Source: Candidatus Nealsonbacteria bacterium
Lineage (GTDB): Bacteria; Patescibacteriota; Minisyncoccia; Minisyncoccales; JAUWAW01
Assembly: GCA_030601865.1 (NCBI GenBank)
Contig: JAUWAW010000001.1
Span: forward strand, 46,433-110,432
Direction: 5' to 3'
DNA: 64,000 nucleotides
Position 1 is the first letter of the stretch. Each line of letters opens with the position of its first letter. This document shows positions 39,329 to 56,155 of this stretch, one piece after another. The notes beneath the pieces were generated by a model. That model ran no database searches. It had not been told where the DNA came from and saw nothing but the letters and a program-made list of their open reading frames with translations. The position numbers were made by a program, and so were the translations under genes.

Positions 39329-40485
39329 AATTGCTTAGTTATTTTATTGTAGCACATTTGAATTAATTTCTTAATATCTATATTTTTCTCTGCTCTTTCT
39401 ACTTCTTTTAGATTGGCTTTGGTTGTTGGATGCTTTGGTAAGAATCTAACGCAGCAGTCCTGGTCCGGCAAAATGGAAATTTCAAAAGTATTGATTTGTC
39501 TTGCCATTTTAATTATCTCTTGTTTGTCCTGACCAAGCAAAGGCCTTAAAATTGGCAGGTCTGTTACTTGCTCAATAACTTTTATATTCTCTAAAGTTTG
39601 CGAAGCCACTTGGCCAATACTCTCTCCGGTAACAACGGCCAGACATTTTTCTTTTTTGGCGACTTCTTGAGCAATTCTGAACATCATCCGACGATACAAA
39701 ATCACTCTTAATTTGGCCGGGGTTTTAAGTAGAATTTCCTTCTGGATACCGGCAAAAGGCGCTAAATAAAGTTTTGAACCCTGCTGAAATTTGTCTAAAA
39801 CCTTGACTATTTTCTGGACTTTTTCAATTGATGCCTTGTTTGTGTAAGGATAGGCGTGAAAGTGCAGGAAAATTATGGCCACTCCCCTTTTGAGCATTAA
39901 AAAAGCAGCCACTGGAGAGTCAATGCCACCTGATAAAAGAGTCACTGCTTTTCCGCTGACGTTGACGGGCAAGCCACCCTGCCCCTTTATTCTTTCTGTA
40001 TATAAAAAGGCAAACTTCTCTACTATTTCAATAAATAAAGTAATATCCGGGTTCTCCAAATCAACTTTTTTCTTTAATTTCTTTAAAATTTCTGCCCCCA
40101 CTTGTTCATTAATCTCTGTTGAGGTTAATAGAAACTCTTTTTTTGACCGTTGCGTGGCAATTTTAAAAGTTTTAAATTTTTGAGTTTTCAAAACTTCAAG
40201 CGCTTTCTTTTTTATTTCGCCAATTTTTTGTGGGCAGTCTACGGCAAAAGCAAAATAAGCAATGCCAAAGACATTTTTTAATACCCCGGCAATTTTTTTT
40301 CCCTCTCCACTGCCCTTCTCACTTATTTTAACCAAAAGCCGTCCTGAAATCCTTTTAACAAATTCAAAAAACTCTGGCCTTAGCGCCTTTTTAATGTTCT
40401 CCACCAACTTTTCCTCAAAAAACCGCCGATTTTTCCCTTTCAACCCAATCTCTGCGTAGTGACAAATAATATACTCCATTAGCAT
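39322..40485 (-). CDS. thiI: tRNA 4-thiouridine synthase ThiI (THUMP + PP-loop, no rhodanese domain)
   Basis: 387 aa; LLSGGIDSPVAAFLM PP-loop and N-terminal ferredoxin-like/THUMP part. Confidence 0.88.
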   Translation of the reverse strand: MLMEYIICHYAEIGLKGKNRRFFEEKLVENIKKALRPEFFEFVKRISGRLLVKISEKGSGEGKKIAGVLKNVFGIAYFAFAVDCPQKIGEIKKKALEVLKTQKFKTFKIATQRSKKEFLLTSTEINEQVGAEILKKLKKKVDLENPDITLFIEIVEKFAFLYTERIKGQGGLPVNVSGKAVTLLSGGIDSPVAAFLMLKRGVAIIFLHFHAYPYTNKASIEKVQKIVKVLDKFQQGSKLYLAPFAGIQKEILLKTPAKLRVILYRRMMFRIAQEVAKKEKCLAVVTGESIGQVASQTLENIKVIEQVTDLPILRPLLGQDKQEIIKMARQINTFEISILPDQDCCVRFLPKHPTTKANLKEVERAEKNIDIKKLIQMCYNKITKQLC

Positions 40486-40488
40486 ATT

Positions 40489-41640
40489 TTAACATATAAT
40501 TATTCCGCCGCCTAAAAGTTTTTCTCCTTTATAGAAAACCACTGATTGACCCGGGGTGACGGCGCGTTGGGGCTTGGCAAAAATTACTTTACAGCGCCTG
40601 CCCGCTATTTTTTTTATTGCTTCAACTTCAATTACTGGCGAACGATACCTTATTTTCGCTTTTATCCCAACTATTGGAGTTGAACTCCAATAGTTTGAAA
40701 TCCAGTTAACATCTTTGACAATCAATTCTTTTTTTTCCAAATGTTTTTCGTTCTTGGTGACAATTAAAGCATTATTTTTGACATCCTTGTCTAAAACATA
40801 GTATGGACCTCCGGCAAGCCCTATCCCCTTTCGCTGACCAATAGTATAAAACCACAACCCCTGATGCTCGCCAATACTACGAGAACAGTTCTCGTAGTAT
40901 TCTAAGATGGGGCCAGGATTTGTTTTAAGATGTTTTCTCAAAAATTCCTCTGTTGTTTTTTTAATAAAGCAAACTTCTTGAGATTCTCTGGCTTCAAGTA
41001 CCGGCAAGTCAAACTCCTTGGCCATCTGTCTTACTTGTCTTTTGGTGTAATCCCCAATGGGAAACAAAATGTGTTTTAATTGTTTCTGGCCCAACTGCCA
41101 TAAAAAATATGATTGATCTTTTTCTTTATCTTTTGCTCTTACCAATGTGTAATTTTGTATTTTTGTGTCAGAATTCTGCGACCTGCCCGTAATGCTTCGC
41201 ATAGCGATACAGGCGGGTCGCAGGATTTTGACACAGTTTAGATCTTTATTTGTATTTTCACATTTACGCGCATAGTGGCCAGTGGCAATAAAATCTGCGT
41301 CCAAGCCCAAGGCTTTTTTCAATAAAAGTCCAAATTTTATTTCTTTGTTGCAGACCACACAAGGGTTGGGGGTTCTGCCTCTTTTATATTCTTTCAAAAA
41401 ATAATTAATGATTTTTCTCTTAAACTCTTTTCTTAAATCCAAAACCAAAAATGGAATGCCTAATTTTTTAGCAATTTTTCTGACTCTTCTCTCACTTTCT
41501 CTGAAATGAGACGACTCATAAAGTTTCATAAAAACTCCTGTTACATTAAAATTAGCCCTTTTAAGAAGGGCTGCTGCTACCGAACTATCCACGCCACCGG
41601 ACATCGCCACTATTACCTTATTTTTTCTTTTTGCTTTCAT
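40489..41640 (-). CDS. mnmA: tRNA-specific 2-thiouridylase MnmA
   Basis: 383 aa; VAMSGGVDSSVAA, NPCVVCN, ATGHYAR, KDQSYFLW, CFI; carries two palindromic elements in frame. Confidence 0.92.
   Translation of the reverse strand: MKAKRKNKVIVAMSGGVDSSVAAALLKRANFNVTGVFMKLYESSHFRESERRVRKIAKKLGIPFLVLDLRKEFKRKIINYFLKEYKRGRTPNPCVVCNKEIKFGLLLKKALGLDADFIATGHYARKCENTNKDLNCVKILRPACIAMRSITGRSQNSDTKIQNYTLVRAKDKEKDQSYFLWQLGQKQLKHILFPIGDYTKRQVRQMAKEFDLPVLEARESQEVCFIKKTTEEFLRKHLKTNPGPILEYYENCSRSIGEHQGLWFYTIGQRKGIGLAGGPYYVLDKDVKNNALIVTKNEKHLEKKELIVKDVNWISNYWSSTPIVGIKAKIRYRSPVIEVEAIKKIAGRRCKVIFAKPQRAVTPGQSVVFYKGEKLLGGGIIIC
40874..40900. repeat. Family-4 palindrome inside mnmA
   Basis: atactacgagaac-a-gttctcgtagtat; encodes YYENCSRSI (thrS copy encodes YENSSRSI). 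Confidence 0.85.
41164..41235. repeat. Family-2 element (TGTGTCAAAATCCTGCGA/TCGCAGGATTTTGACACA), expanded copy in frame inside mnmA
   Basis: tgtgtcagaattctgcgac-[34-nt insert]-gtcgcaggattttgacaca; 72 bp = 24 codons (CVKILRPACIAMRSITGRSQNSDT). Confidence 0.85.
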
Positions 41641-42007
41641 GGTCCTTGATGGCTGATTTAAGGGCTGTTTCGGCTAATCGGATACAATGAAGTTTTGGTT
41701 TGGGAACTTCGCCCACTTGTTCAGCAATATCGTCAAAAGTAATCTTCTTTGCCTGTTTCAACGTCTTGCCTTCTGCCAAAGCGCAAATCATATCTGAAAT
41801 GGCTATGGCGTGTCCGCATCCGAGCGTTTCAAATTTTGCCTCTTTAATACGTTCTTTTCCATCCTTTTTTTCTACTTTGATATAAATTTTCATCACGTCG
41901 CCACACCTCAAATTTTGGGTATCCCCTACTCCATTTGCATCTTTAATCTTGCCCAAGTGTCTGGGGTGTAAAAAATGCTCCATTATTTTTTTTGAGTAAT
42001 AAACCAT
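41618..42007 (-). CDS. iscU: Fe-S cluster scaffold protein IscU/NifU-like
   Basis: 129 aa; three conserved Cys contexts RCGDVM, LGCGHAIA, KLHCIRLA. Confidence 0.9.
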   Translation of the reverse strand: MVYYSKKIMEHFLHPRHLGKIKDANGVGDTQNLRCGDVMKIYIKVEKKDGKERIKEAKFETLGCGHAIAISDMICALAEGKTLKQAKKITFDDIAEQVGEVPKPKLHCIRLAETALKSAIKDHESKKKK

Positions 42008-42011
42008 AAAA

Positions 42012-43142
42012 TTAATATCTTCCCGAAATCTTTCTCAGCCGTTTTATAACCTCGGGTAAGATTTTTAAAACATAGTCAATTTCCTGTTTTGTCGTATACC
42101 TCCCCAAGGTTAATCTCAAAGAACCATGGGCTTGTTCTGGAGTAAGCCCCAAAGCTAAAAGCACATGAGAGGGCTCTAAGCTTCTTGTAGAACAAGCCGA
42201 GCCAGTGGAGGCGGCAATTCCCTCCTGGTCCAAAGCAATCACCATACTTTCTCCTTCTGCGCCTTCAAAAGTAACATTAACATTGTTGGCAAGGCGATAT
42301 TCTCTTGAGCCATTTAATTTTGAGTTGGGAATTTTTTCTAAGATGCTGTCAATGAGTTTGTCGCGCAGTTCTTGGGTTTTGGGGATGTTGGGGATGTTAG
42401 GGATTTGGCTAATGGCAGTGCCCAAACCAACAATTCCAGCTACGTTCTCGGTGCCAGAGCGCATTCCGTGTTCTTGATTTCCACCATAGATTAAAGGTCT
42501 AATTGAAGTGCCCTTTTTAATATACAAAGCGCCGATTCCTTTGGGTCCGTAAATCTTGTGGGCAGACAAAGTCAAAAGGTCAACACCTAATTTTTGCACA
42601 TCACAATCTAAATAATTTACTGCCTGCACTGCATCAGTATGAAATAGAATTTTTGAGTTTTTTAATAACTTACCAATTTCAGCAATTGGCTGGATACTGC
42701 CGATTTCATTGTTGGCATACATTACAGAAACTAAAACTGTGTTTTCTTTAATGGCTTTCTCAACATCAGAAACTTTAACTATCCCTTCTTTACCTACCGG
42801 CAAATAAGTAACTTCTACTCCTTCCTTTTCTAATGCTTCACAAGGTTCAAAAACTGCGTGATGCTCAATTTTGGTTGTAATGATATGTGAAGGACTTATT
42901 CCAAAAATGGCTAAGTTGTTTGCCTCGGTGGCTGAGCCGGTAAAAACAATTTCTGAAGGAGAACAACTCAAAAAACCGGCCACTCTTTCTCTGGCTTTAT
43001 CAACTGCCATTTGAGCTTTTTGACCGAAATTATGAATTGAAGAAGGATTGCCGCATTCCTCTTTCAAATACGGCAACATCTCCTTCAAAACCTTAGGGTC
43101 AACCGGTGTGGTCGCCGCGTAATCAAGATAAATTGGCTTCAT
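42012..43142 (-). CDS. iscS: Cysteine desulfurase (IscS/NifS family)
   Basis: 376 aa; PLP lysine SAHKIYGPKG and active-site loop STGSACS. Confidence 0.92.
   Translation of the reverse strand: MKPIYLDYAATTPVDPKVLKEMLPYLKEECGNPSSIHNFGQKAQMAVDKARERVAGFLSCSPSEIVFTGSATEANNLAIFGISPSHIITTKIEHHAVFEPCEALEKEGVEVTYLPVGKEGIVKVSDVEKAIKENTVLVSVMYANNEIGSIQPIAEIGKLLKNSKILFHTDAVQAVNYLDCDVQKLGVDLLTLSAHKIYGPKGIGALYIKKGTSIRPLIYGGNQEHGMRSGTENVAGIVGLGTAISQIPNIPNIPKTQELRDKLIDSILEKIPNSKLNGSREYRLANNVNVTFEGAEGESMVIALDQEGIAASTGSACSTRSLEPSHVLLALGLTPEQAHGSLRLTLGRYTTKQEIDYVLKILPEVIKRLRKISGRY
42381..42407. repeat. 9-bp tandem repeat x3 inside iscS
   Basis: ggggatgtt-ggggatgtt-agggatttg; encodes IPN-IPN-IPK. Confidence 0.8.
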
Positions 43143-43234
43143 ATTATTTCTCTAATTTAACACATTTTCTTGTATTATATTACTTTAACAAAAAAGTTTG
43201 TTTTGGTCAATTTAGGCTTTTTGTTATACTAAAT

Positions 43235-45313
43235 ATGATGACTAAGAAAGCATTAATTTTTTCTTTCTTTGTTTTAGGGCTAACCTCGCTTCTCAGTCAA
43301 GTTATGATTCTGCGGGAATTAACCGTGAGTTTTTACGGTAATGAATTTTTTATTGGTTTGGTTTTAGCTTCCTGGTTGGCCTGGGTGGCGGTGGGCAGCG
43401 GGCTGGGAGGAAAACTCTTAAACAAAATTAAGGAAACCTCGGGTCTTTTAATCAGCCTTTACTTCTTAGTTGGACTTTTCTTTTTTTTGGAAATATTTTT
43501 AATTAGGTTTTTAAAGGGATGGATCGGGATGCCCGGAGAAATTCCCAATTTAATCATAGCCGGTCTAACTGCTTTATTAACTCCTGCCCCGCTCTGTTTA
43601 CTTTTGGGTTTGTGGTGGACCTGTGCCACCAGAATGTTTTCCCAGGGAAAAGCTCAACTTGTTAATCGCGCCTATTTCATAGAAACCCTGGGCTTTATTT
43701 TAGGTGGCATTTTGTTTAGCCTTTTTTTGGTCAATCTCCAGTTTCCCTGGATGGCTAACTTTCAATTCAAAGGACAAAACTTATTAGAATCAGTCAATTC
43801 TCCTTACGGCAATATTGCTGTAACTAAAATTGGGGAACAATATAATTTTTATGAAAGTGGATTGCTTTTGGGCTCTGAAGAAGAAATTCAATTTTCAGAA
43901 GATTTAATCCACCTTTCCCTTTTACAACATCCTTCTCCTCAAAAAGTTCTTTTAATTGGCAATGGTTTTAATGGGGCTGTAAATGAGATATTGAAACACC
44001 AGCCAGAAAAAATTTATTATTTAGAACTTGACCCAAAATTAATTGAACTTTCCCAAAAATATATCTCTCAAGAATTTAAAGAAGTATTGACTCATCCAGC
44101 TGTAAAAATTATCAATACTGATGGCCGTTATTTTCTTCAAGGAACTAAAGAAAAATTTGATGCCATTTTGCTTAATTTACCAGACCCCTCAACCGCTTTA
44201 ATTAATCGCTTTTACACACAAGAGTTTTTTGAAAAAGCAAAAGAGAAATTAGCCCCAAACGGGATTTTTGCTACCTATCTTACCTTCTCCCCCAGCACTC
44301 CGGGTAAAAATTTAGAAAACCTTAATGCTTCCATATTTAGAACCTTAAAAAAAGTTTTCAATCAAGTAATTGTTTTGCCGGAAGAAACCAATTTCTTTTT
44401 GGCTTCCCAGAACGAAAATTTGACTTACAATTTTGAAATCTTGATTCAAAGATTTGAACAAAGGAATATTGAAACTAAATTTCTTACTAAAGAATATATA
44501 ACTTATCGTCTGTCTAATGATAGGATTGAAAAGACACTGGCTTTGTTTGAAAAAAATGAAAAAGCTAAAGAAAATAAAGATTTCAAACCCATTGCTTATT
44601 TTTACCAGACCCTATTTTGGTTAGACCGTTTTTACCCTCAATTTTCTAATTTTTTTAAACAGTTGGTTTCTGCTTTTTGGTTAGTATTTGCTGGCGCTTT
44701 AATATTTTTAACCCTGCTTTTGCTTAAAAGAAGAAAAGGTTGGAGAAAAAACTTTTCTCTATTATCTGTAGCTATAGCTGGATTTTCTTTAATGGCCTTG
44801 GAAATAATAATTATTTTCAGTTATCAAATAACCATTGGTTATCTTTATTACCGAATCGCTTTGTTGATTGCTGCCTTAATGGCAGGCATGGCCCTTGGTG
44901 TTTGGTATGGAAATAAGAAAGGGCGACCACACAAGGTCGCCCCTACATTCCATTTATTATTAATAATGTTCTGTGTAATCTTATTTTTAGCATTTCCTTT
45001 TCTTTCAAAAATTCCTTCTGGTCTGACAGCAGAAATTATCTTTTTAATTTGTGCAGGTGTGGCTGGATTTTTAGGAGCGGCTATTTTTTCCTTTGCCAAC
45101 CAACTATATCTTTCTTCTCAATCGGACCCTCATAAAAAAACCGGCACCATCTACGCAGTAGATTTAGCCGGTTCTTGTTTTGGAGCCCTATTGCCCGGTT
45201 TAATTCTTATCCCGGTTTTCGGCGTTTTCCAAACCTTAATTGTTATTGCCTTGGCCAACCTCTGGATAGTATTAATTTTCTTGGGGTTTAATACGGGCGA
45301 TTTTTCTTTTTAG
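43235..45313 (+). CDS. Polytopic membrane protein with central spermidine-synthase-like (class I methyltransferase fold) domain
   Basis: ORF track starts at 43106, inside the iscS antisense; ATG-ATG at 43235 (MMTKKALIFSFF) preferred. VLLIGNGFNGAVNEILKH..YLELDP..DAILLNLPDP; TM helices on both sides. Confidence 0.75.
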   Translation: MMTKKALIFSFFVLGLTSLLSQVMILRELTVSFYGNEFFIGLVLASWLAWVAVGSGLGGKLLNKIKETSGLLISLYFLVGLFFFLEIFLIRFLKGWIGMPGEIPNLIIAGLTALLTPAPLCLLLGLWWTCATRMFSQGKAQLVNRAYFIETLGFILGGILFSLFLVNLQFPWMANFQFKGQNLLESVNSPYGNIAVTKIGEQYNFYESGLLLGSEEEIQFSEDLIHLSLLQHPSPQKVLLIGNGFNGAVNEILKHQPEKIYYLELDPKLIELSQKYISQEFKEVLTHPAVKIINTDGRYFLQGTKEKFDAILLNLPDPSTALINRFYTQEFFEKAKEKLAPNGIFATYLTFSPSTPGKNLENLNASIFRTLKKVFNQVIVLPEETNFFLASQNENLTYNFEILIQRFEQRNIETKFLTKEYITYRLSNDRIEKTLALFEKNEKAKENKDFKPIAYFYQTLFWLDRFYPQFSNFFKQLVSAFWLVFAGALIFLTLLLLKRRKGWRKNFSLLSVAIAGFSLMALEIIIIFSYQITIGYLYYRIALLIAALMAGMALGVWYGNKKGRPHKVAPTFHLLLIMFCVILFLAFPFLSKIPSGLTAEIIFLICAGVAGFLGAAIFSFANQLYLSSQSDPHKKTGTIYAVDLAGSCFGALLPGLILIPVFGVFQTLIVIALANLWIVLIFLGFNTGDFSF
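44921..44942. repeat. 8-bp-stem GC-rich hairpin in frame in a loop of the membrane protein
   Basis: gggcgacc-acacaa-ggtcgccc; encodes GRPHKVA. Confidence 0.7.
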
Positions 45314-46321
45314 TTTTTTGTTGGCTCGATACTCCCCTATCTTTCTCTTTCTTGCCTCGGTCCATCTATCCAAGCCAAGCAGTTTTGACTTGAAAATCCA
45401 AATGGCTGAGAAAGCTATGGCCAAAGGCAGCAAAACAGAATCTAAAATTGTGTTACCTATGCCGGTACTAACTTCAGTAGGAAGTCCGGCTGCTTGAGCA
45501 ACAGGCACACCAACGAACCTTCCCTGCACCATAACTTTACAACTATTGCTGCGAGAGAGGTAATTTGTATAAACTAAGGCAACGGTGATTAAATTATTTG
45601 TGCCATAACCTAAATTCTCTATTGAGGCAACTTTTGCTTCAAAAGTGATTGTTTTCGTCTGCTCAGATAATAAATTGCCTACATTAATGGCTCGAGAACT
45701 AATATTGCGAGTATTAGAAACACCGTCTATCCTCAAATTGTCTTGATAGCTTATATTTGGTGGTAAATTTGCTTTGACCTTTATATTTTGAGCTTTAATA
45801 TTACTGGTTGATTCAAGCCTTATCTTAAAAAGTAATTGGTCAAAAGGCTCGGCTTTCAAAGAGTCATACCAAACTGTATCTCCTCTGGAGAGATTCTTGA
45901 CAGATGTTTTAACACTAAAAGAGGGGCATTTGGTGGTAAATGTCTTGTCTTCCCCATAACCATTCTTTTTAGTGTTATTTTGAGCTACAGCCCGAAAATG
46001 ATATTGGGTGCAGGGAGATAAACCAGAAAGATTCACTGAGAAAGCGCCGATATGCCTTCTTTCTTCCACTGGTGTTGTGCGGCCGTAAGAGGTGTTTTTG
46101 CCATATTGAAACCAAAGTTTTAAGTCCACGCACCCGCCATCGTCAGTCACATCACCTCTCAAAAGAACCGAAGATAAAGTAATATTAGTGGCTGAGCGCG
46201 TGACTACCGTAGCGCGCACCACCATAGCAAAAACACAGATTGGGACAAGTAATCCCAAAATGAGTAAAAAGACAAATTGAGTTTTCGAGTTTCTTTGTTT
46301 TTTAACCAGATATTTATTCAT
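45272..46321 (-). CDS. Cell-surface protein with Fn3-like and repeat domains and C-terminal sorting-signal-like region
   Basis: 349 aa; N-terminal TM/signal; C-terminal GLPTEVSTG followed by a hydrophobic helix and a long basic tail; next to a sortase. Confidence 0.6.
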   Translation of the reverse strand: MNKYLVKKQRNSKTQFVFLLILGLLVPICVFAMVVRATVVTRSATNITLSSVLLRGDVTDDGGCVDLKLWFQYGKNTSYGRTTPVEERRHIGAFSVNLSGLSPCTQYHFRAVAQNNTKKNGYGEDKTFTTKCPSFSVKTSVKNLSRGDTVWYDSLKAEPFDQLLFKIRLESTSNIKAQNIKVKANLPPNISYQDNLRIDGVSNTRNISSRAINVGNLLSEQTKTITFEAKVASIENLGYGTNNLITVALVYTNYLSRSNSCKVMVQGRFVGVPVAQAAGLPTEVSTGIGNTILDSVLLPLAIAFSAIWIFKSKLLGLDRWTEARKRKIGEYRANKKLKRKIARIKPQEN

Positions 46322-46350
46322 TGTTTTTAGGTTTTTAAGTTTTTAGGTTT

Positions 46351-46950
46351 TTAGTCTAACACTGCCTCCACGGCAATTCTGTAAAGGTCTTTACCCGGAG
46401 GCCAGCAACTTAATAAGATTAACACGGACTTAGAGTTTGTCAACCCGGAAGGAAGCTCCTCTCCTCGGTCAAGGAAAAACTTGTTGGTCACCCGGTAAAC
46501 ATATTGACGGTTATTAAAACAAACATAAATTTCATCTCCTTCAGCTAACTTATTCAAATCAGTAAAAATTCTATCATAATTGATATCAGGCCAGCCCTCA
46601 GGTGCGCTGTGGCCTAAAATTATTGCTCTACCCTGCTCTCCGGGCAAAGCGGAATCCGGGTAATGCAGAACTCCTTCTTTTAGATATTTTTGAAAATCTT
46701 TGTTGTCAGTGCTTTCGGTAAAAACAATGGGGGCTTCCTCCTCAATTTTAGGGATTGAAATAGTATTTTCTAAAACAGTGCTCTCATTTTCAAAGCTATC
46801 AGGTTCTTGTGTTTGCAGCTTGCCATAAATAACTTTGTAATTAAAAAACAAGGAAATCTCCTGCCAATTTATAATCAAAAAAACCACCAGAAATATAAAA
46901 ACAAAGGGTTTCCAGAACTTTTTAATTGCCTCTGTAAAATTCATTAGCAT
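46351..46950 (-). CDS. Sortase family transpeptidase
   Basis: 199 aa; N-terminal TM, AIILGHS (His), LILLSCWPPG (Cys), YRIAVEA (Arg). Confidence 0.75.
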   Translation of the reverse strand: MLMNFTEAIKKFWKPFVFIFLVVFLIINWQEISLFFNYKVIYGKLQTQEPDSFENESTVLENTISIPKIEEEAPIVFTESTDNKDFQKYLKEGVLHYPDSALPGEQGRAIILGHSAPEGWPDINYDRIFTDLNKLAEGDEIYVCFNNRQYVYRVTNKFFLDRGEELPSGLTNSKSVLILLSCWPPGKDLYRIAVEAVLD

Positions 46951-46997: not shown

Positions 46998-47028
46998 AAA
47001 ACTATCGAGAACTGTTCTCGATAGTTTT
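46998..47028 (-). terminator. Family-4 variant palindrome acting as the lepA terminator
   Basis: aaaactatcgagaa-ctg-ttctcgatagtttt; 14-bp stem; on the minus strand it is followed by ttttggttt. Confidence 0.6.
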
Positions 47029-48833
47029 TAACTTCTAAGGAGTTTCAGGTATATTTCCTCGGGAATAGGGGTGCGGCCGTGTTTTTGGAGAATTTTTTTG
47101 CCTTTGCGTTGTTTGACTAAGAGTTTCTTTTTGCGGGTAAAGTCGCCGCCGTACAGGGGCGCGGTCACATCCTTGCGCAGGGCGCGGATATCCTCACGCG
47201 CGATTATTTTGCCGCCAATTTGGGCTTGAAGCGATTGGGTAAAGTTTTTTGGAGGCAGGACATCCTTTAATCTTTTGAGAAACTGACGCGCCTGCTTGCG
47301 CGCCGCGTCTTTATAAACAATGCGCGAGAAACAGGGCTTCAGTTCGCGCGAAACCAAAAACTCAAGTTTAATAAGGTCGCTTTTTTTATACTCGTCAAAT
47401 TCGTAACTAAAGGAAGCGAACCCCTTGCTAATGCTTTTCAGTTTGTCTAAAAAATCCTCAATAATCTCAGCAAGCGGCGCATAAAACTCTAAAAGCAAGG
47501 TATCTTTATCTAAAACTTGCGAGGAAATAAACTTGCCTCGTTTCTGCTCAACTAATTCATGGATTTTGCTGTTGTGTCTGGTCGGGCTGACAATGTTTAA
47601 TTTAACCCAGGACTCCGCTATATAGTCAATCTCGCCCTGGTCCGGCAGTTCTGCGGCCGAATGGACTAAAATCGGCTCTTTTTGCTTTTTTGTCTTTACC
47701 TTGAAAACAACCGAAGGAGAAGTAAGAACCACTTGGGTGCCATACTCCCGCTTTAACCTTTCCATGGTGATTTCCAGATGAAGCATACCTAAAAAGCCGA
47801 TGCGCAGTCCCCTGCCTAAATAAGGATTGCTCATAGGTTTGGCTGTGAGAGAAGTGTCGTTGAGCCGCAGTTTGTCAAAATTGGCTTTCAGGGTTTCAAA
47901 GTTTTGGCCTTGCCCTTGCCCCTGCCCCGGAAAAACATTGGCAAAAACCAATGGCTTGGGCTCTTTATAGCCAGGCAGGCGAGGACAGTCCTCGCCTGAT
48001 TTGGTTGTTATTGTCTCGCCGATTCTGACGTCTGAAACGTTTTTTATGCCCGTGGCGATGTAGCCGATTTGGCCGGCTATTAGTTTTGGCACAGGACTAC
48101 GTTGCGGTATGAAAATGCCGACTTCTCTTGTTTCGGCGCGGACTTTTTGATTGACAAAATAAATTTGGTCGCCTTTTTTGATTTCGTTGCCAAACAGCCG
48201 CACATAGGCAATTACTCCCTGAAAATTGTCGTAAATTGAATCAAAAACCAGGGCTTTTAATACTCCTCCGCCCTCTGTTTTTGGCTGCGGCGCCTGCTTT
48301 ATCAACGCTTCAAGAACTTTCTCTATATTCTCGCCTGTTTTGGCGGAAATAGTTAAAATTTCCCCTGAATCAATACCTAAAAGATTGGCTAATTCCTGCT
48401 TAACTTTTTCTAATTGCTCCTCGCTCGGACAAACATCTATTTTATTGATAACCGGTATTATTTTCAAACTCTGCGCCTGCGCCAGGCGCAGATTAGCCAG
48501 GGTCTGTGCCTGAATGCCTGAAACCACGTCAACCAATAAAATAACACATTCAACAGCGGCCAAAGACCGTTCTACTTCATAGGAAAAATCCATATGGCCA
48601 GGCGTGTCAATCAAGTTTAATTGGTACTTGCGGCCGGCCAGACCATACTCCATTGCACAGGGCTGCATCTTGATAGTGATGCCGCGCTCTCTTTCCAAAT
48701 CCATCTGGTCCAAAACCTGTTCGCGCATCTGCTCTTTCTTCAAGGTGTTGGTAATTTCCAAAAACCGGTCAGCCAGAGTTGATTTGCCGTGGTTTATATG
48801 CGCGATTATAGAGAAATTTCGTATATTTCCCAT
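47028..48833 (-). CDS. lepA: Elongation factor 4
   Basis: 601 aa; IRNFSIIAHINHGKSTLADR G1 motif, DTPGH, NKID, LepA C-terminal domain; visibly more GC-rich than its neighbours. Confidence 0.95.
   Translation of the reverse strand: MGNIRNFSIIAHINHGKSTLADRFLEITNTLKKEQMREQVLDQMDLERERGITIKMQPCAMEYGLAGRKYQLNLIDTPGHMDFSYEVERSLAAVECVILLVDVVSGIQAQTLANLRLAQAQSLKIIPVINKIDVCPSEEQLEKVKQELANLLGIDSGEILTISAKTGENIEKVLEALIKQAPQPKTEGGGVLKALVFDSIYDNFQGVIAYVRLFGNEIKKGDQIYFVNQKVRAETREVGIFIPQRSPVPKLIAGQIGYIATGIKNVSDVRIGETITTKSGEDCPRLPGYKEPKPLVFANVFPGQGQGQGQNFETLKANFDKLRLNDTSLTAKPMSNPYLGRGLRIGFLGMLHLEITMERLKREYGTQVVLTSPSVVFKVKTKKQKEPILVHSAAELPDQGEIDYIAESWVKLNIVSPTRHNSKIHELVEQKRGKFISSQVLDKDTLLLEFYAPLAEIIEDFLDKLKSISKGFASFSYEFDEYKKSDLIKLEFLVSRELKPCFSRIVYKDAARKQARQFLKRLKDVLPPKNFTQSLQAQIGGKIIAREDIRALRKDVTAPLYGGDFTRKKKLLVKQRKGKKILQKHGRTPIPEEIYLKLLRS
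47906..47930. repeat. Hexanucleotide-type repeat encoding (GQ)4 inside lepA
   Basis: ggccttgcccttgcccctgccccgg; encodes PGQGQGQGQ. Confidence 0.8.
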
Positions 48834-50434
48834 TAATATTCTTCTTCAAAGATTTGGGCGGTGAAAGTGTAGAGGTCAATATCTTCTTCTTTCCAGCAGT
48901 CCCAGGGCAGACCGACTTTTTGAAAGCAAAGTTCTCCCATAAATTTTTCTAAATCCCAATTATTGTCAGTAGCTACTTGGGGCAGAAAAACACCATTTCT
49001 CAAGCCCTTTCTAATTTGCACGCCGTGTTTGCCAATCTCAATTCCCTGCCAATTATCAATTTTCTCTAAGGGACTCAAAACCGAAATTTCATAGTCAAGC
49101 TCACCAAGTTCATCCTCTCCCACAGGATAAAATCTTTTATCCTGGGTGGCAGCCGCAATGGCCATTTGAGAAACAACTTGATACAGAGGTATGTCAGTGG
49201 GTGAAAAACGGCCAATGCAGCCCCGTAGCTGGCTCTGCTTCTTTAAAGTAACAAAAGCACCCAAGTTTTGATTTAATATGGATTCTTCAACTTGAAATTC
49301 TGGAATTTTACCTTCTTTGACAAAAGTTTCAACTGAATTCTTAGCGATTTCCAAAAGTTTTTCTTGCTCTGTTTTCTTTAATAAATGACTCTGTCTTGGT
49401 CCAAAAAAGCCAATGGCTGCATAGCCAACCACTTGCGATTTATCACCTATGGGCACGTCTCCGGAATTGGCATATTTTAATAATTTAATTTCTTCAGCAG
49501 CCAATTCTTTGGCTACTAACATGATTGTTTTGATAGCATCTTCTGCGCAAACAAAAGTTACTGCTCCAGGAATATTCTCTTTTTCCAAGTCCTGAATTGT
49601 TTTTTCTAACTCCCCTACCCTACCGGTTAAAATGGCTTCAATGGTTTTGCTATCTGCCTGTTGAGCATCACCATAGCTAGGATAATGCGACAAATCAGAA
49701 CTGGCAATCAGTAAAATATTCTTACCTCTGATATTTTTAACAATGGCTTGAGCTAAAATTTTGTAATCTTCTTCTGGGCTGTTGCCCAAAATAATGGGTA
49801 CAATCCGTGGTACGTGCACGGACAAAGGAGATCCTTCGGCCTTCGGCCTCAGGATGACTTGCAAAAAAGGTAATTCCACCTCAAGGGAATGCTCTCTTTG
49901 ATGAACACTCTCTCTGAAAAAAATTCTTTCGTTTTCTGCAATAATTTTTTCAGCTAATTGAGAATCTATTTCTACTTCTCCTAAGGGAGTTTTATAAAAA
50001 CCTCGTGGGAAAATAGAAATACCTTCAAATCTCTCATAATGGCTGTTGCCAATAAGAATCACCGTAGCAAATTGGTTCAAATCGTGACGATCGTCATAAC
50101 TTGAACCACCCATCAGTTGCTTAAAGCCGTAGGCGGCCACGGGGCCAGAAAATGGATAGCCAGCATGGGGCAGAACTAAAGCAAAAATCTCGCCTTCGGT
50201 TTCTGGCGGACTTGCCTTTTCCAAAAATTGGTCAATCATTTTCTCTAACTCCTCAGGGTCTCCAGGATAAAATTGTCCAGCCACTGCCGGCTGCCGAATT
50301 ATTTTTTCTTCTTTTTCAAAAACGTCTGAAACCATAGCTTTTTGAGAAATATCTTCCCCTCCCTTAAATATTAAAAGTATACTAATCGCACCAACAACAA
50401 AAATTAATAAAGCTATTATTAGAACTTTCTTCAT
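48833..50434 (-). CDS. AmmeMemoRadiSam system fusion: protein B (Memo-like) + protein A (AMMECR1), with N-terminal membrane anchor
   Basis: 533 aa. TM helix at residues ~3-23. Memo motifs PAVAGQFYPG, LPHAGYPFSGPVAA, SSDLSHYP. AMMECR1 motifs GAFVTLKK..LRGCIGRF, DKRFYPV, ISVLSP, GVFLPQVA. Confidence 0.85.
   Translation of the reverse strand: MKKVLIIALLIFVVGAISILLIFKGGEDISQKAMVSDVFEKEEKIIRQPAVAGQFYPGDPEELEKMIDQFLEKASPPETEGEIFALVLPHAGYPFSGPVAAYGFKQLMGGSSYDDRHDLNQFATVILIGNSHYERFEGISIFPRGFYKTPLGEVEIDSQLAEKIIAENERIFFRESVHQREHSLEVELPFLQVILRPKAEGSPLSVHVPRIVPIILGNSPEEDYKILAQAIVKNIRGKNILLIASSDLSHYPSYGDAQQADSKTIEAILTGRVGELEKTIQDLEKENIPGAVTFVCAEDAIKTIMLVAKELAAEEIKLLKYANSGDVPIGDKSQVVGYAAIGFFGPRQSHLLKKTEQEKLLEIAKNSVETFVKEGKIPEFQVEESILNQNLGAFVTLKKQSQLRGCIGRFSPTDIPLYQVVSQMAIAAATQDKRFYPVGEDELGELDYEISVLSPLEKIDNWQGIEIGKHGVQIRKGLRNGVFLPQVATDNNWDLEKFMGELCFQKVGLPWDCWKEEDIDLYTFTAQIFEEEY
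49828..49858. repeat. Family-1 element copy in frame inside the Memo domain
   Basis: gagatccttcggccttcggcctcaggatgac; encodes (minus strand) VILRPKAEGSP. Confidence 0.85.
50074..50107. repeat. Family-3 element (TTCAAATCGTnnCGATCGTCATAA..TGAA) in frame inside the Memo domain
   Basis: ggttcaaatcgtgacgatcgtcataacttgaacc; encodes SSYDDRHDLNQ. Confidence 0.8.
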
Positions 50435-50482
50435 CTTGGTTTTGTATTATACCTTCTTAAAGGGGATTAGCCAATACCTCTT

Positions 50483-51595
50483 TTATTCCCAAACACCAGG
50501 GATTTTTTCGCCATCGGAGCATTGGCCGTTTTGGAGGTTGTTTTGGGTGACAAAAAAGCCTTGCCTGACAATGGCCGGCTCTCCTGATTCAGGGCAAAAG
50601 GTGGTGCTGCCTTCGGGGTCGTAAATGTTGCCGGTGTAAACATATTTCAGGCCATACTCCTGAGCCATTTGCCGGGCTTTCTGCAAGGTCTCAATAGGAG
50701 TGGGAGGCAGATTAAGTAACTTGTAATCAGGATGAAAACGGGTAAAATGCAAAGGGATATCTGTGCCCAGATTTTCTTTAATCCATAAAATTAAATTTCT
50801 GAAATCTTCTTCCCGGTCGTTTTCTGTGGGAATAACCAAATTGACAATTTCCAGCCAGACACCTTGTTCCTTGATAATCTTCATTGCTTCCAAAACAGGC
50901 CCCACATGGCCAGCTGTCATTTCCTGATAAAATTTGTCATCAAAGCCCTTAAAGTCAATTTTGTAAGCATCAATGTAGGGCAAAAGGTCTCTTAAGGGTT
51001 CGGGGTTAATGTAGCCAGCGCTAATAACCACATTTTTCAAACCGTTTTCATGCGCCAATAGAGCAATGTCTAACATATATTCGTAAAAAGCAGTTGGTTC
51101 AGTATAAGTAAAAGCAATTGATTGGGCGCCTGATTTTAAGGCCTTTTCCACCACTTGTTGGGGCGTCATTTTTATTGATGACACCTCCCAAGGGAAAACC
51201 TGGGCAATCTGCCAGTTTTGGCAAAATTTACACTGCAAATTGCAGCCGGTAGTGGCAATAGAATAAGTTTTAGTGCCGGGCAGAAAATGATAAAGCGGTT
51301 TTTTCTCAATGGGGTCAAGGTGTGAGGCAACAATTTGCCCGTAAACTATGGAGTAAAGTTCTCCCTCTATATTCTTTTTGGCTCGGCAAATCCCAATTTG
51401 ACCCTCAGATAAAATACATCTATTGGGACAAAGATTACATCTCACCATTTTACTGCCCAATTTCTCATAGTACTTGGCTAAATGTAAATCTTGGGGAGTA
51501 ACCCCTCCCCCGCGCTCTCTACCCCAAATAAGAAACACAGCCAAACCAACAATGATGATTAAAAATATAATGGCGCCTATCTTTGCTTTAAGCAT
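50483..51595 (-). CDS. AmmeMemoRadiSam system radical SAM enzyme, with N-terminal TM helix
   Basis: 370 aa; TGCNLQCKFCQNW radical-SAM cluster and N-terminal CNLCPNRC...ICRAK cluster; PFL-activase-like. Confidence 0.85.
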   Translation of the reverse strand: MLKAKIGAIIFLIIIVGLAVFLIWGRERGGGVTPQDLHLAKYYEKLGSKMVRCNLCPNRCILSEGQIGICRAKKNIEGELYSIVYGQIVASHLDPIEKKPLYHFLPGTKTYSIATTGCNLQCKFCQNWQIAQVFPWEVSSIKMTPQQVVEKALKSGAQSIAFTYTEPTAFYEYMLDIALLAHENGLKNVVISAGYINPEPLRDLLPYIDAYKIDFKGFDDKFYQEMTAGHVGPVLEAMKIIKEQGVWLEIVNLVIPTENDREEDFRNLILWIKENLGTDIPLHFTRFHPDYKLLNLPPTPIETLQKARQMAQEYGLKYVYTGNIYDPEGSTTFCPESGEPAIVRQGFFVTQNNLQNGQCSDGEKIPGVWE

Positions 51596-51609
51596 AAAAC
51601 CCTTTTATT

Positions 51610-51645
51610 TGTGTCAAAATCCTGCGATCGCAGGATTTTGACACA
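51610..51645. repeat. Family-2 element, perfect 36-bp palindrome, intergenic
   Basis: tgtgtcaaaatcctgcga|tcgcaggattttgacaca; contains GCGATCGC; identical to 56120-56155. Confidence 0.95.
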
Positions 51646-51651
51646 GTTTTA

Positions 51652-51966
51652 CTACAAAAAATAGAGATAAAATAAGAATATCAGAATAACTAAACTCAAG
51701 ATAATAACATAAATATTTGTCCATTTTTCGTCCTTGAGCCATCTTCTCAGGGTGAATTTAAGATAAATAAAAACATGCAAAATAAAGAATATAATGAAAG
51801 GAATGGGCAGCCATTTATCGTGCAGTTTCTCTGCTAAAACCGGGTCCATAATGCCTTTGGTCATACCATAACCAGAAATAAAATACAACATCATCAGTAA
51901 AGCCAAAACATAGCCAGAAAACCTGGCTGTTTTAATGAGAATTCTATTGATTTGAGTCTTGTCCAT
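51652..51966 (-). CDS. Small 3-TM membrane protein
   Basis: 104-aa ORF co-oriented with the radical SAM gene; His residues within TM segments; no family recognised. Confidence 0.5.
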   Translation of the reverse strand: MDKTQINRILIKTARFSGYVLALLMMLYFISGYGMTKGIMDPVLAEKLHDKWLPIPFIIFFILHVFIYLKFTLRRWLKDEKWTNIYVIILSLVILIFLFYLYFL

Positions 51967-51983
51967 AAATTTAATGCAAATGT

Positions 51984-52610
51984 TTAACTTACGATGTTAA
52001 ACATATTATAAATAGCGTAGGCGAAAAATAGAGTTCCGACAATCAAAGCGGCAATTCGGCCTACCAACTGGAATTCTTTCATTTTATTCAAATAGCCCAA
52101 AAAAACAAGGGGCAGGAAATACAGGGTTGTGCCCAAAAAAAACATTAAAAAATAAACTATACCTTTCAAGGCGCTGTGGAGCGTAAAGACATAGGTTAAA
52201 GACATTAAAAAGGGCGGGCAGATATTGACTCCCATTAAAAAACCCATCAAAAGCGGTATTTTAGCATTGTATTTTTTGATTTTGTGACAAAAACTAAACC
52301 TCTTCCATTTCATCAAGCCCAAAGCATGCAGAATTAAAATAAGAGAAAGCAACATTAAAGCGACCATTAAAATAAGATTGAGGACTTGGTTATTAATCCT
52401 CTGCCCCAAATAGCCAAAGACAGCTCCAAAAGTTACGTAGCCGAGCAATCTGCCAAAAATGAATTTAAGAATAACGAAAAGGTTCTCCCTCCTTCCCCGC
52501 GCCTCGGCAATCATCATTGGAGCAACAAAGGGGATACAGAAAGTTAGACAATATATGCCTGCTGACAGCCCTAAAAGAAATGGTGAAATAAAAATCTCTG
52601 ACATAAGCAA
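51984..52610 (-). CDS. Multi-pass membrane protein, DsbD_2 / TauE-like (tentative)
   Basis: 208 aa; about 6 TM helices; Cys pair in TM1 (GIYCLTFCIPF). Confidence 0.5.
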   Translation of the reverse strand: MLMSEIFISPFLLGLSAGIYCLTFCIPFVAPMMIAEARGRRENLFVILKFIFGRLLGYVTFGAVFGYLGQRINNQVLNLILMVALMLLSLILILHALGLMKWKRFSFCHKIKKYNAKIPLLMGFLMGVNICPPFLMSLTYVFTLHSALKGIVYFLMFFLGTTLYFLPLVFLGYLNKMKEFQLVGRIAALIVGTLFFAYAIYNMFNIVS

Positions 52611-52666
52611 TATCTACTTTCATTTTAAGCAATTTTTTGCTAAAATCAAAGGGAGAGGGCCCGTAG

Positions 52667-52732
52667 CCCCTCACCCAGATTGCTCTGCGCTTTGCGCAAA
52701 TTTGTTGAAAACAGGGCAATCTGGGTGAGGGG
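52667..52732. repeat. 17-bp perfect-stem hairpin whose 3' arm overlaps the first 3 nt of tRNA-Ala
   Basis: cccctcacccagattgc-[32 nt containing tgcgc/gcgca]-gcaatctgggtgagggg. Confidence 0.8.
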
Positions 52733-52803
52733 CCTATAGTATAATGGCATTACACCGCATTCGCATTGCGGAAATGTGAGTTCGATTCTCGCTGGGTCCA
52801 CCA
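52730..52803 (+). tRNA. tRNA-Ala (anticodon CGC), CCA encoded
   Basis: Hand fold: acceptor GGGCCTA/TGGGTCC with a G3:U70 pair, anticodon stem CCGCA/TGCGG with loop TTCGCAT, T arm GTGAG-TTCGATT-CTCGC, discriminator A, CCA. Confidence 0.88.
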
Positions 52804-52856: not shown

Positions 52857-53357
52857 ATGAGAGAATACAAATCAAACTTCGCAAAATATTCTTCTTTTTG
52901 GTATTCTTTAATTGTTTGTTCGGTAATAATCCTAATTATTGCCTCAAGGTTTGATTCGTGGTCTGTTATTTCTTCATGTTTAGTAATGGGGCCGTTGATA
53001 TTTTTCTGTGTTTGGGTTGTGCTTATTGTTAAGTTTACTTTTTTTAGGATCACTAACGAGGGTAGATTAGAATGCTTTTTGCCCGGAACTTCTTTTAGAA
53101 AGAAAAGTATAGATATTAAGAGTATTACTTCCATAAGGCGAGAACATGTGAGTAAGGGTTTACGCCTTTTACGTAGATTTTCTGTTCCTGTCTTACGTTT
53201 AAGTTGGCTTAATAGATACAATCAAGAAGAGTTTATAGATGTTTCTTACGCTATTTTTAACAGAAAAACACTGACTCAATTTTTAAGGGACCTAAGGCAG
53301 TTAAACCCGAGCATAGAATTAGATTCATATTATAAAAAAATAACAAAAGATTACTAA
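52857..53357 (+). CDS. Two-TM membrane protein with bacterial PH-like C-terminal domain (tentative)
   Basis: 166 aa; two clear hydrophobic helices then a basic soluble domain; preferred over the overlapping antisense ORF 52853-53221. Confidence 0.5.
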   Translation: MREYKSNFAKYSSFWYSLIVCSVIILIIASRFDSWSVISSCLVMGPLIFFCVWVVLIVKFTFFRITNEGRLECFLPGTSFRKKSIDIKSITSIRREHVSKGLRLLRRFSVPVLRLSWLNRYNQEEFIDVSYAIFNRKTLTQFLRDLRQLNPSIELDSYYKKITKDY

Positions 53358-53480
53358 ATTAACAGAGAGACAATTTTTACAAAACCAAAATAATCCCTGC
53401 TGTTTCACGCGGTAAAAGTTGTTTTAGTAGAATTTATAAACCTGAAAGATATTTATATAAAAGCGGCTCGGAGGCTTTTA

Positions 53481-53990
53481 TTGTGTGAGAGAACCGCAAA
53501 GATTATTTTGGGTAGTAAAAGAGACATGATTTCTGGTGACTCATTTCAAGATTTTAGGGAATTCACTTATCATCTTGAGAACTTTTGGTTACGTGCTTTT
53601 GCATATAGGGAAAAGATATGTCAACTCATAAACTTAATGCTGGATTTAAGATTTTCCGAAAAAGAACCTCTGTTTTTTACACTATTGAAAGATTCAAGAG
53701 TAAGAGAAAGTGGGCTGAAAGTGGAGTTAGAAAAATTCAACAAAAACAAGATTTTCCGAGAGGTATTAATGAAACGAAAATTGATTACGCACAGGATATA
53801 TTATGATTCCTTAATTTCCGGCTATGATAGGCAGTTTAAGCCTTTTCAGAAAAAGAATATTGGCTCAATACAAAAAACATGGTTGTCAAATATGAGAGAA
53901 GAGGTGAGTTTTGCCAAAAAGTTTACAGAGAAGGTAATGGATTTTAATGACATTATAATGCGGAAGTTGATAGATTATAAAAAAAGATGA
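53481..53990 (+). CDS. Hypothetical helical protein with a possible HEPN-type Rx4H motif
   Basis: 169-aa ORF (TTG start; ATG at 53526 more likely); motif RKLITH within LMKRKLITHRIYY; AT-rich. Confidence 0.45.
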   Translation: MCERTAKIILGSKRDMISGDSFQDFREFTYHLENFWLRAFAYREKICQLINLMLDLRFSEKEPLFFTLLKDSRVRESGLKVELEKFNKNKIFREVLMKRKLITHRIYYDSLISGYDRQFKPFQKKNIGSIQKTWLSNMREEVSFAKKFTEKVMDFNDIIMRKLIDYKKR

Positions 53991-56119: not shown

Positions 56120-56155
56120 TGTGTCAAAATCCTGCGATCGCAGGATTTTGACACA
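56120..56155. repeat. Family-2 element, perfect 36-bp palindrome between dnaB and recR
   Basis: Identical to 51610-51645. Confidence 0.95.

Follow-up and report, generated by a model that had tools for sequence, protein, structure and literature searches.

The DNA analysed here is a stretch of 64,000 nucleotides from a Candidatus Nealsonbacteria bacterium (assembly GCA_030601865.1, contig JAUWAW010000001.1, positions 46,433 to 110,432), called the window throughout, and it encodes a membrane-associated variant of the AmmeMemoRadiSam system. A first-pass annotation of this DNA had described a block of four genes: a Memo-AMMECR1 fusion, a radical S-adenosylmethionine (SAM) enzyme, a DsbD_2-like membrane protein and a small membrane protein of 104 amino acids. 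All four open reading frames (ORFs) are present, all of them on the minus strand, and a fifth gene for a polytopic Spermine_synth-like protein lies on the plus strand nearby. The coding features, with the support for each in brackets, are:

51984-52604, minus strand: DsbD_2 (PF13386) protein of 206 amino acids with six transmembrane segments (ORF 51984-52610, probable ATG start at 52604; Pfam, 82.2 bits)
51652-51966, minus strand: protein of 104 amino acids with three transmembrane segments (three hydrophobic segments; synteny)
50483-51595, minus strand: AmmeMemoRadiSam radical SAM enzyme of 370 amino acids (TIGR04337, 376.9 bits)
51524-51580, minus strand: signal-anchor-like hydrophobic segment at the N-terminus of the radical SAM enzyme, residues 6-24, flanked by MLKAK and WGRER (hydropathy)
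48833-50434, minus strand: Memo-AMMECR1 fusion of 533 amino acids (TIGR04336 and TIGR04335; Pfam Memo and AMMECR1)
50369-50425, minus strand: hydrophobic segment at the N-terminus of the fusion, residues 4-22 (hydropathy)
43235-45313, plus strand: polytopic Spermine_synth-like protein (Pfam PF01564, 90.3 bits; probable start at M44 of the ORF 43106-45313)

On all criteria that could be tested, the cluster belongs to the AmmeMemoRadiSam system; its leaders, its partners and the loss of a ribbon distinguish it from the classical form. The triad had been read as a fusion plus a radical SAM enzyme, and this holds: all three families (TIGR04335, AMMECR1-like A; TIGR04336, Memo-like B; TIGR04337, radical SAM) score above their curated NCBIfam cut-offs, in adjacent genes and with intact catalytic motifs. 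The radical SAM enzyme is well above the TIGR04337 cut-off of 220 bits, and carries its CX3CX2C motif as CNLQCKFC together with an N-terminal CX2CX3C...C motif. The fusion reaches 242.6 bits for TIGR04336 (cut-off 26) and 166.4 bits for TIGR04335 (cut-off 99). Its Memo domain spans residues 48-341 (Pfam, 200 bits) with PHAGY, EHSLE and SDLSHY, and its AMMECR1 domain spans residues 361-529 (178 bits) with RGCIG and DKRF. A function of AmmeMemoRadiSam in base or isoprenoid modification is said to have been predicted by Burroughs and co-workers in 2019. The same prediction is attributed to an earlier study, which also suggested that the conserved cysteine of AMMECR1 takes part in catalysis (Balaji & Aravind 2007, PMC2034487).

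Both enzymes begin with a hydrophobic stretch of 19-20 residues. The radical SAM enzyme starts MLKAK-IGAIIFLIIIVGLAVFLIW-GRER, where residues 6-24 have a Kyte-Doolittle mean of 3.09, and the fusion starts MKK-VLIIALLIFVVGAISILLIF-KGGED, where residues 4-22 have a mean of 3.36. These N-terminal helices, already noticed in the first pass, are kept in all 53 related loci described below. The leader of the radical SAM enzyme follows the consensus K-[KR]-[IFV]-x-A-x-[LI]-F-[LM]...G-x-A-G-[YF]-L-I-Y-x-R-E-K across four phyla, a conservation that exceeds the need of a plain anchor and may reflect docking to DsbD_2 and the small membrane protein.

At its other end, the window-type radical SAM enzyme lacks the C-terminal CxxC...CxxC zinc ribbon of the classical enzyme, which is reduced to CPES...CSDG. 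The change from CPxC...CxxC to CPxS...CxxG is found in the radical SAM genes of loci L001-L056 (50483-50600 in the window), and the ribbon is wholly lost in loci labelled Verrucomicrobiota. This loss is confined to the anchored clade linked to DsbD_2, and relatives with a twin-arginine translocation (Tat) leader or a fused membrane module keep the ribbon intact. The nearest characterised relatives in a profile search are the glycyl-radical-enzyme activases of the PflA and NrdG families, with sub-threshold scores of 56.1 bits for PFLA (cut-off 231.75) and 51.3 bits for NrdG2 (cut-off 131.15). This relationship suggests that the enzyme may be a protein- or partner-directed radical generator. However, it lies far under the cut-offs of the activase families, whose members are cytoplasmic, and no glycyl radical enzyme occurs among the neighbours at the 53 loci.

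The DsbD_2 protein, which in its 206-residue form (ATG at 52604) is identical to the database protein P0001, exceeds the Pfam cut-off of 24.9 bits by a wide margin. Judging by homolog names, the host belongs to Patescibacteria and is close to Portnoybacteria and Parcubacteria. The cysteine pair noted earlier in its first transmembrane segment consists of C19 and C23, which are invariant in 31 of 31 homologs and form a CxxxCxP motif with P25. A third cysteine, in the fourth segment (N127-x-C129-P-P, with P130 and P131), is likewise invariant in all 31. Because lysine and arginine are concentrated in loops 1, 3 and 5 of the six hydrophobic segments (10.45, versus 2.06 in the termini and loops 2 and 4; 31 sequences), the protein is predicted to have both termini outside (N-out/C-out). 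Neither sequence search nor fold search returned a relative in the PDB.

The 104-residue protein has three hydrophobic segments, as had been described, and matches no Pfam or NCBIfam family. Its AlphaFold2 model contains three transmembrane helices and one short helix (pLDDT, the predicted local distance difference test, 79). The family alignment shows invariant SGYGxTK, P42, L48-H49 and H64. Counts of lysine plus arginine (6.3 versus 2.4) predict an N-in/C-out topology, which would place the SGYGxTK...P...LH motifs at the outer face and H64 in mid-membrane. We considered a relationship to DUF4405 (PF14358) or to cytochrome-b-like proteins, as the spacing of two histidines looks alike by eye, and rejected it as unproven given a probability of 8.7% in hhalign against the DUF4405-like family from related loci and the missing Pfam match. 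In loci of the Microgenomates/WWE3 type, a different small membrane protein replaces the 104-residue protein; it has a CPxGxxNDPYPGxC..ICD head and a DUF4405-like three-transmembrane tail with two histidines. Its gene lies between those of DsbD_2 and the radical SAM enzyme on the opposite strand (L042, L044, L047, L049, L050, L051, L055, L056) or upstream (L052, L072), and in L045 (672-1658) the cysteine-rich head is fused to a NapH-like protein.

The association of the two membrane genes with the radical SAM gene extends far beyond this genome. In the first look-ups, DsbD_2, a gene of about 101-104 amino acids and the radical SAM gene were found together at 59-67% DsbD_2 identity, even with the fusion gene 4 kb away. 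One genome per GTDB species was then scanned, giving 80 DsbD_2 loci in which ORFs were called and searched with the window proteins. Synteny in other genomes had been named beforehand as the check on the claimed association, and it was borne out: a radical SAM gene of the AmmeMemoRadiSam type (above 300 bits) adjoins DsbD_2 in 46 of the 50 species-representative loci with DsbD_2 scores of at least 135 bits, in at least four phyla. At three of the four remaining loci the contig ends within 1.15 kb. By record title, the carriers include Patescibacteria (with WWE3, Woesebacteria and Microgenomates), Omnitrophota, Verrucomicrobiota, Lentisphaerota and Planctomycetota. The other 30 loci, more distant and from Methanosarcina, WOR-3, Fibrobacterota and others, have the radical SAM gene in four cases and a NapH-like polyferredoxin membrane protein beside DsbD_2 in 15. 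In the window the block is interrupted by a genome-specific palindrome and by promoter-like sites, as might be expected if the membrane genes had come to lie there by chance. Adjacency in 46 of 50 loci across phyla, fixed in some relatives as gene fusions, makes such a coincidence exceedingly improbable.

The neighbours of the module were also grouped by unsupervised all-against-all clustering at 53 non-redundant loci. The radical SAM enzyme is present in 51 of these and DsbD_2 in 49, the latter count being so by construction. A Spermine_synth-like protein follows with 42, and the small three-transmembrane protein, encoded between DsbD_2 and the radical SAM enzyme, with 23; Memo-AMMECR1 occurs within 7 kb of the radical SAM gene in 23 of the 53 as well. 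Every other family reaches four loci at most. The tightest partners of the radical SAM enzyme are thus DsbD_2 and the Spermine_synth-like protein, and the five-gene cluster is conserved across several uncultured bacterial phyla. This locking of the enzymes to DsbD_2, the small protein and the Spermine_synth-like protein also sets the window type apart from classical AmmeMemoRadiSam.

The Spermine_synth-like protein, which was absent from the first-pass annotation, completes the module as its fifth conserved member. It is about 730-735 residues long and has five transmembrane segments, a central PF01564 domain and seven further segments in the window (5-7 and 7 in the family), and it scores 663 bits against its counterpart in L001. 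Its gene is usually convergent and directly follows that of the radical SAM enzyme or the fusion; in the window it lies 3.5 kb off, separated from the block by lepA, a sortase gene and a gene for a DUF11 protein, none of which recurs elsewhere. The protein resembles the membrane-fused aminopropyltransferases (PRK03612; "fused MFS/spermidine synthase", NF037959) in having a PF01564 domain with conserved nucleotide-binding motifs within a polytopic protein. It differs from them in falling under all equivalog cut-offs (118 versus 472 and 34 versus 40), and TIGR00417 for spermidine/spermine synthase likewise gives 99.8 bits against a cut-off of 249.55. The domain lies between 5-7 and 7 helices, the catalytic DSTDP is replaced by N-L-P-(N/D)-P (NLPDP in the window), and the GGGDG position reads GNGFNG. 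Because the central domain is located on the side poor in lysine and arginine (20.1 versus 6.5 on the two sides; 38 sequences), it is predicted to face outward, again in difference to the known enzymes. With a SAM-fold domain predicted outside between two sets of helices, the protein invites the guess that it may export or present SAM or one of its derivatives.

On which side of the membrane the enzymes work is best approached through their relatives, where signals, fusions and charges provide mutually independent lines of evidence. The first line comes from export signals. Three fusion proteins from diderm relatives with the same cluster type have lipobox-like leaders ending in xxSC or TGC motifs directly before the Memo domain: MKRMCSLAVAALLLAGLSVSC-GYSAED in L019, ...LVSFATSC-SAEDVRPPAVAG in L023 and ...FPLMTGC-YAEN in L026. 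All three satisfy the PROSITE lipoprotein rule. The fusions of L007 and L060 have Sec-type sites. For the radical SAM enzyme, Tat-like leaders are found in L057 (LTRRELLL) and L060 (DRRRFLT), and a Sec leader in L079 (MSYMKYIFTFLSCLLLFSVLYA-EE).

When 1.84 billion cluster representatives were searched exhaustively with HMMER, 8086 members of the radical SAM family were recovered, and we classified the best 150 of these (50%-cluster representatives). There is no N-terminal extension in 82 of the 150, and nothing about these classical members points away from the cytoplasm, in contrast to the window enzymes with their hydrophobic leaders. Among the same 150, about 30 carry a canonical Tat motif on an extension of 35-60 residues, nine have a hydrophobic, Sec or lipoprotein leader, and seven are fused to a membrane redox module. 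Roughly one in three of the closest representatives thus looks exported or membrane-bound. The Tat-type members are true TIGR04337 proteins (369-377 bits), and in the clade of P0153 the motif is present in 91 of 120 relatives.

The fusions provide the second line. In P0128 and P0139, DsbD_2 is joined directly to the radical SAM domain, which would lie outside because the predicted DsbD_2 C-terminus is outside and no helix is added. P0140 and P0143 have the order helix, FMN_bind, radical SAM. In P0130, P0134 and P0138, FMN_bind (preceded in part by DsbD_2) is followed by a NapH-like region, a helix and the radical SAM domain. Six real helices lie between FMN_bind and the radical SAM domain, and the CX3CP loops contain 6-12 lysines and arginines, the alternate loops 0-2; helix count and charge together would again put the radical SAM domain outside. 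FMN_bind in these proteins keeps the [ST]GAT flavinylation motif, which is typical of extracytosolic FMN_bind domains (Meheust et al. 2021, PMC8238504). All three AmmeMemoRadiSam domains are united in P0136 (signal peptide, Memo-AMMECR1, radical SAM) and P0126 (helix, radical SAM, Memo-AMMECR1); the architectures of P0126, P0131 and P0136 place the action of all three domains on a single side of the membrane. As a side observation, the radical SAM domain of P0127 and P0132 is preceded by a signal peptide and an extended N-terminal region, which in P0127 matches Reg_prop and PorZ beta-propeller models and looks extracellular.

Several points weigh against an outward placement in the window itself. 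All topologies come from hydropathy and hand-made charge counts, which are not a direct measurement. The anchor flanks of the window type are ambiguous, with 2.1 lysines plus arginines in the six residues before the helix versus 2.8 in the fifteen after it, and in P0126 (MLKIE-TM-SMKKNEK, TM being the helix) the same count indicates C-in. The leader of the window clade is of a KK type and has no twin arginine; the [ST]RRxFL motif is missing from the window enzyme, which starts MLKAKIGAIIF. The neighbourhoods of the Tat-type members differ as well, with DUF362 and neither DsbD_2 nor Memo-AMMECR1 within 8 kb, so that their orientation is carried over to the window clade by extrapolation. A radical SAM enzyme working outside the cytoplasm is not known, nor is SAM known to be available outside cells. 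With a KK-type leader in place of a Tat signal, the iron-sulfur clusters would need to be loaded once the protein has been inserted by a Sec-type route, for which no precedent is known.

Some details of the Tat-type loci may be added here. The Tat radical SAM genes L087:9172-10176, L088:7087-7989 and L089:7183-8004 adjoin DUF362, which in L087 has a MERRQFLK leader of its own. Those of L088 and L089 also adjoin a Spermine_synth-like membrane protein, and none of the three loci has Memo, AMMECR1 or DsbD_2 within 8 kb.

These points could be accommodated if the anchors were N-out/C-in, so that the enzymes sat at the inner face among SAM, reduced flavodoxin and the iron-sulfur assembly machinery and modified a membrane lipid or isoprenoid. 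Burroughs and co-workers (2019) reportedly proposed a link of Memo systems to the modification of aliphatic isoprenoids, which would fit such a tether. All known radical SAM chemistry is cytoplasmic, the flank counts are ambiguous or slightly in favour of the C-side, P0126 has more lysine after its helix than before it, and the leader lacks the twin-arginine motif. Nevertheless, we consider an inner-face tether unlikely: cleavable Sec or lipoprotein signals are found on Memo-AMMECR1 partners encoded in clusters of the same type, radical SAM relatives carry Tat or Sec signals, and others are fused to the outward DsbD_2 C-terminus or to FMN_bind domains. Net charge alone, with 2.5 acidic residues after the anchor, favours N-in, and the short N-terminal tail with its lysines and arginines is not expected to be translocated. 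The positive-inside rule is the established basis for this expectation. The N-terminal helices seen in the first pass stand, and the relatives with Sec, lipoprotein or Tat signals point to enzymes that face outward and not to a tether on the cytoplasmic face. Because such signals replace the helix in relatives, being tethered may be only one variant of being exported. We regard an outward orientation of the window enzymes as moderately probable.

If the enzymes are outside, they might also be secreted and not tethered, the N-terminal segments being cleaved signal peptides and the enzymes soluble or lipid-anchored, with a loose association to DsbD_2. Small residues do occupy a candidate -3/-1 site in the helix, as GLA|V for the window enzyme and as ALA|G, GLA|G, CSA|G and GTA|A for relatives, and cleavable signals are used by relatives. 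However, the -3/-1 rule is obeyed in only about half of the relatives, and a hydrophobic stretch of 19-20 residues is long for a signal peptide. A free enzyme would moreover be lost from a Patescibacterium with its single membrane, and the DsbD_2 fusions argue for proximity to the membrane. Secretion without a tether thus appears quite improbable, more so than the inner-face alternative, and anchoring at the outer face remains the reading we prefer.

The role of DsbD_2 is the second part of the interpretation. In several respects the protein matches CcdA/DsbD, its relatives in the Pfam clan: it has six transmembrane segments, a predicted N-out/C-out topology, and cysteines in the first and fourth segments next to proline. 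CcdA/DsbD proteins are themselves N-out/C-out. The window protein differs in having three invariant cysteines (CxxxC plus one) where two are the family norm, and its cluster has no conserved thioredoxin-like outer partner, the conserved partner being an iron-sulfur radical enzyme. In distant lineages the same DsbD_2 subfamily is found next to NapH-like Fer4_5 proteins or as a fusion with them, and in Microgenomates and WWE3 it adjoins DUF4405-like three-transmembrane proteins bearing histidines. Because NapH-like, FMN_bind or DUF4405-like proteins take or share the job in these other lineages, the best reading of DsbD_2 by analogy is that of one of several interchangeable membrane electron-transfer modules. 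The suggestion of a redox supply, made in the first pass for the cysteine-containing membrane protein, is likewise the reading favoured here, with the cysteines of the first and fourth segments placed as in CcdA/DsbD and electron-transfer partners elsewhere.

Two considerations tell against an electron relay. No family of thioredoxin-like outer acceptors recurs among the neighbours at the 53 loci, though one could be encoded elsewhere in the genome. Thiol/disulfide carriers also operate at a potential much higher than the one at which a radical SAM cluster is usually reduced. Both would be less troublesome if DsbD_2 were a transporter of the LysE/TauE superfamily, moving a small molecule used or produced by the outer enzymes (such as a metal like iron, a sulfur species, SAM or the product) with its cysteines as ligands while the enzymes still face outward. 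Homologs are named "sulfite exporter TauE/SafE family" in databases, and an exported iron-sulfur enzyme with a Sec-type leader would need a supply of clusters or metal outside. Against transport stand the proline-flanked cysteines of the first and fourth segments that mirror CcdA/DsbD, the matches of some homologs to PF02683 DsbD, and the partners of the subfamily in other lineages, which are bona fide electron-transfer modules (NapH-like Fer4_5, FMN_bind, DUF4405-like). We therefore find a transporter improbable, about as much so as an inner-face tether, and we hold the electron-relay role of DsbD_2 with less assurance than the outward orientation.

A related comparison is that with the extracytosolic electron-transfer modules associated with flavinylation, of the NapH-like, DsbD and NosR/PceC types, which have been catalogued and found to be under-represented in the candidate phyla radiation (Meheust et al. 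2021, PMC8238504). The survey mentions no radical SAM, Memo or AMMECR1 client. Relatives of the radical SAM enzyme are fused to FMN_bind with [ST]GAT, to Fer4_5 domains with CX3CP and to DsbD_2, and in both cases a membrane module would feed an enzyme outside. In contrast, the window module has no FMN_bind, ApbE or NapH-like gene; FMN_bind (PF04205) was found in the fused relatives P0130, P0134, P0138 and P0140 only. The cluster itself is not a flavinylation system. Full-text literature searches gave no report of exported, periplasmic or membrane-bound radical SAM enzymes, and none that links AmmeMemoRadiSam to DsbD_2, NapH-like or FMN_bind modules.

Our preferred reading is that the window encodes a five-gene AmmeMemoRadiSam variant with its catalytic domains on the outer face of the cytoplasmic membrane and with its own transmembrane redox supply through DsbD_2, to which we assign a probability of about 50%. 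The radical SAM enzyme as well as the Memo-AMMECR1 fusion would be inserted N-in/C-out by their signal-anchor-like helices, and the central domain of the Spermine_synth-like protein, with its 12 transmembrane segments, would likewise be outside. DsbD_2 would collect reducing equivalents from the cytoplasm and relay them through its three intramembrane cysteines to the adjoining radical SAM enzyme outside, with the 104-residue protein as an accessory subunit of the DsbD_2 membrane unit. Once reduced, the radical SAM enzyme would cleave SAM and generate a radical that acts on or with Memo-AMMECR1. Together the two enzymes would modify a substrate on the envelope side, an envelope molecule being the natural guess.

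We extend this more tentatively to the family, at slightly less than even odds. A large branch of the AmmeMemoRadiSam radical SAM family, comprising the Tat, Sec, lipoprotein, anchored and fused types, may be exported and served by DsbD_2, NapH-like, FMN_bind or DUF4405-like modules, while the Spermine_synth-like protein presents or exports a SAM-type cofactor. The window would then hold a minimal, thiol-based version from Patescibacteria that modifies a cell-surface molecule.

The remaining features of the region concern transcription, repeats and neighbouring genes. The candidate promoters and the palindrome at the block are:

52622-52649, minus strand: putative promoter-like TTGATT-N16-TAAAAT upstream of DsbD_2 (9/12 consensus match)
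50446-50474, minus strand: putative promoter-like TTGGCT-N17-TATAAT between the radical SAM and fusion genes (10/12 match)
51610-51645, no strand: perfect palindrome of 36 nucleotides in the 56-nucleotide gap between the 104-residue protein gene and the radical SAM gene (identical copy at 56120-56155)

The first of these strings had been proposed as the promoter of the block. It is present, and with promoter-like sites of this kind numbering 22 in the region versus 18.4 +/- 4.2 in shuffles, it is indistinguishable from chance. An Rfam scan of the block found the upstream tRNA-Ala as its only RNA match, with no riboswitch or other RNA.

The 36-nucleotide palindrome (TGTGTCAAAATCCTGCGATCGCAGGATTTTGACACA) occurs in two identical copies, each just past a stop codon: one after the 104-residue protein gene and one 3 nt after the stop of dnaB. 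It is genome-specific, since in relatives the 104-residue protein and radical SAM genes abut or overlap. An intrinsic operon terminator was considered and rejected, as there is no U-tract on the coding strand and the element is absent from relatives; it is instead a repeated genome-specific element. Palindromes with arms of at least 13 nt number 22 in the window versus 2-8 in Markov shuffles. The two palindromic elements reported in the fusion gene (50073-50108 and about 49800-49850) are real. Both lie inside the Memo domain and coincide with in-frame insertions of 10 residues (GSSYDDRHDL) and 11 residues (KAEGSPLSVHV) that are absent from 15 of 15 aligned homologs. These genome-specific insertions are reminiscent of the palindromic elements known from coding regions in Rickettsia. 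Another family of palindromes (..CTACGAGAACAGTTCTCGTAG.. with variants) lies at 5680-5712, 27048-27076, 40873-40901 and 46998-47028, the last copy falling between the lepA and sortase genes. An inverted repeat at 52666-52733 has 22-nt arms that are 95% complementary and 24 nt apart, the right arm entering the first bases of tRNA-Ala(cgc) (52730-52803).

As for the neighbouring genes, the stop of the fusion and the start of lepA do overlap as TAATG, as noted in the first pass, but this coupling to lepA is found in this genome alone. The genes thiI, mnmA, iscU (NifU_N) and iscS (Aminotran_5) at 39322-43142 lie on the minus strand, divergent from the Spermine_synth-like gene, and this iron-sulfur and sulfur-relay set is beside the module in none of the other loci compared. 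A sortase and a DUF11 surface protein (LPTEV, a hydrophobic stretch and a basic tail) are encoded at 45272-46950, between lepA and the Spermine_synth-like gene, again in this genome only. IscS/IscU, LepA and the sortase were rejected as members of the module, as they are conserved neighbours in no other locus. On the other side, the region 52857-53990 holds an unassigned hydrophobic ORF of 166 residues followed by a Cthe_2314-like HEPN protein (53481-53990), which may represent a small toxin or defence pair.

Conservation of Memo and AMMECR1 extends from archaea to humans, in whom they are tied to disease, and the prokaryotic triad with a radical SAM enzyme is the main clue to their biochemistry. 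A variant wired to a membrane redox module, and apparently active on the outer face, offers handles on the side on which the enzymes work, on the electron donor, on an additional partner and on the search for a substrate on the envelope side. If the orientation favoured here is true, it would overturn the working view of radical SAM enzymes as strictly cytoplasmic. It would also add a new class of clients to the extracytosolic electron-transfer systems, in phyla that are anaerobic and almost entirely uncultured.

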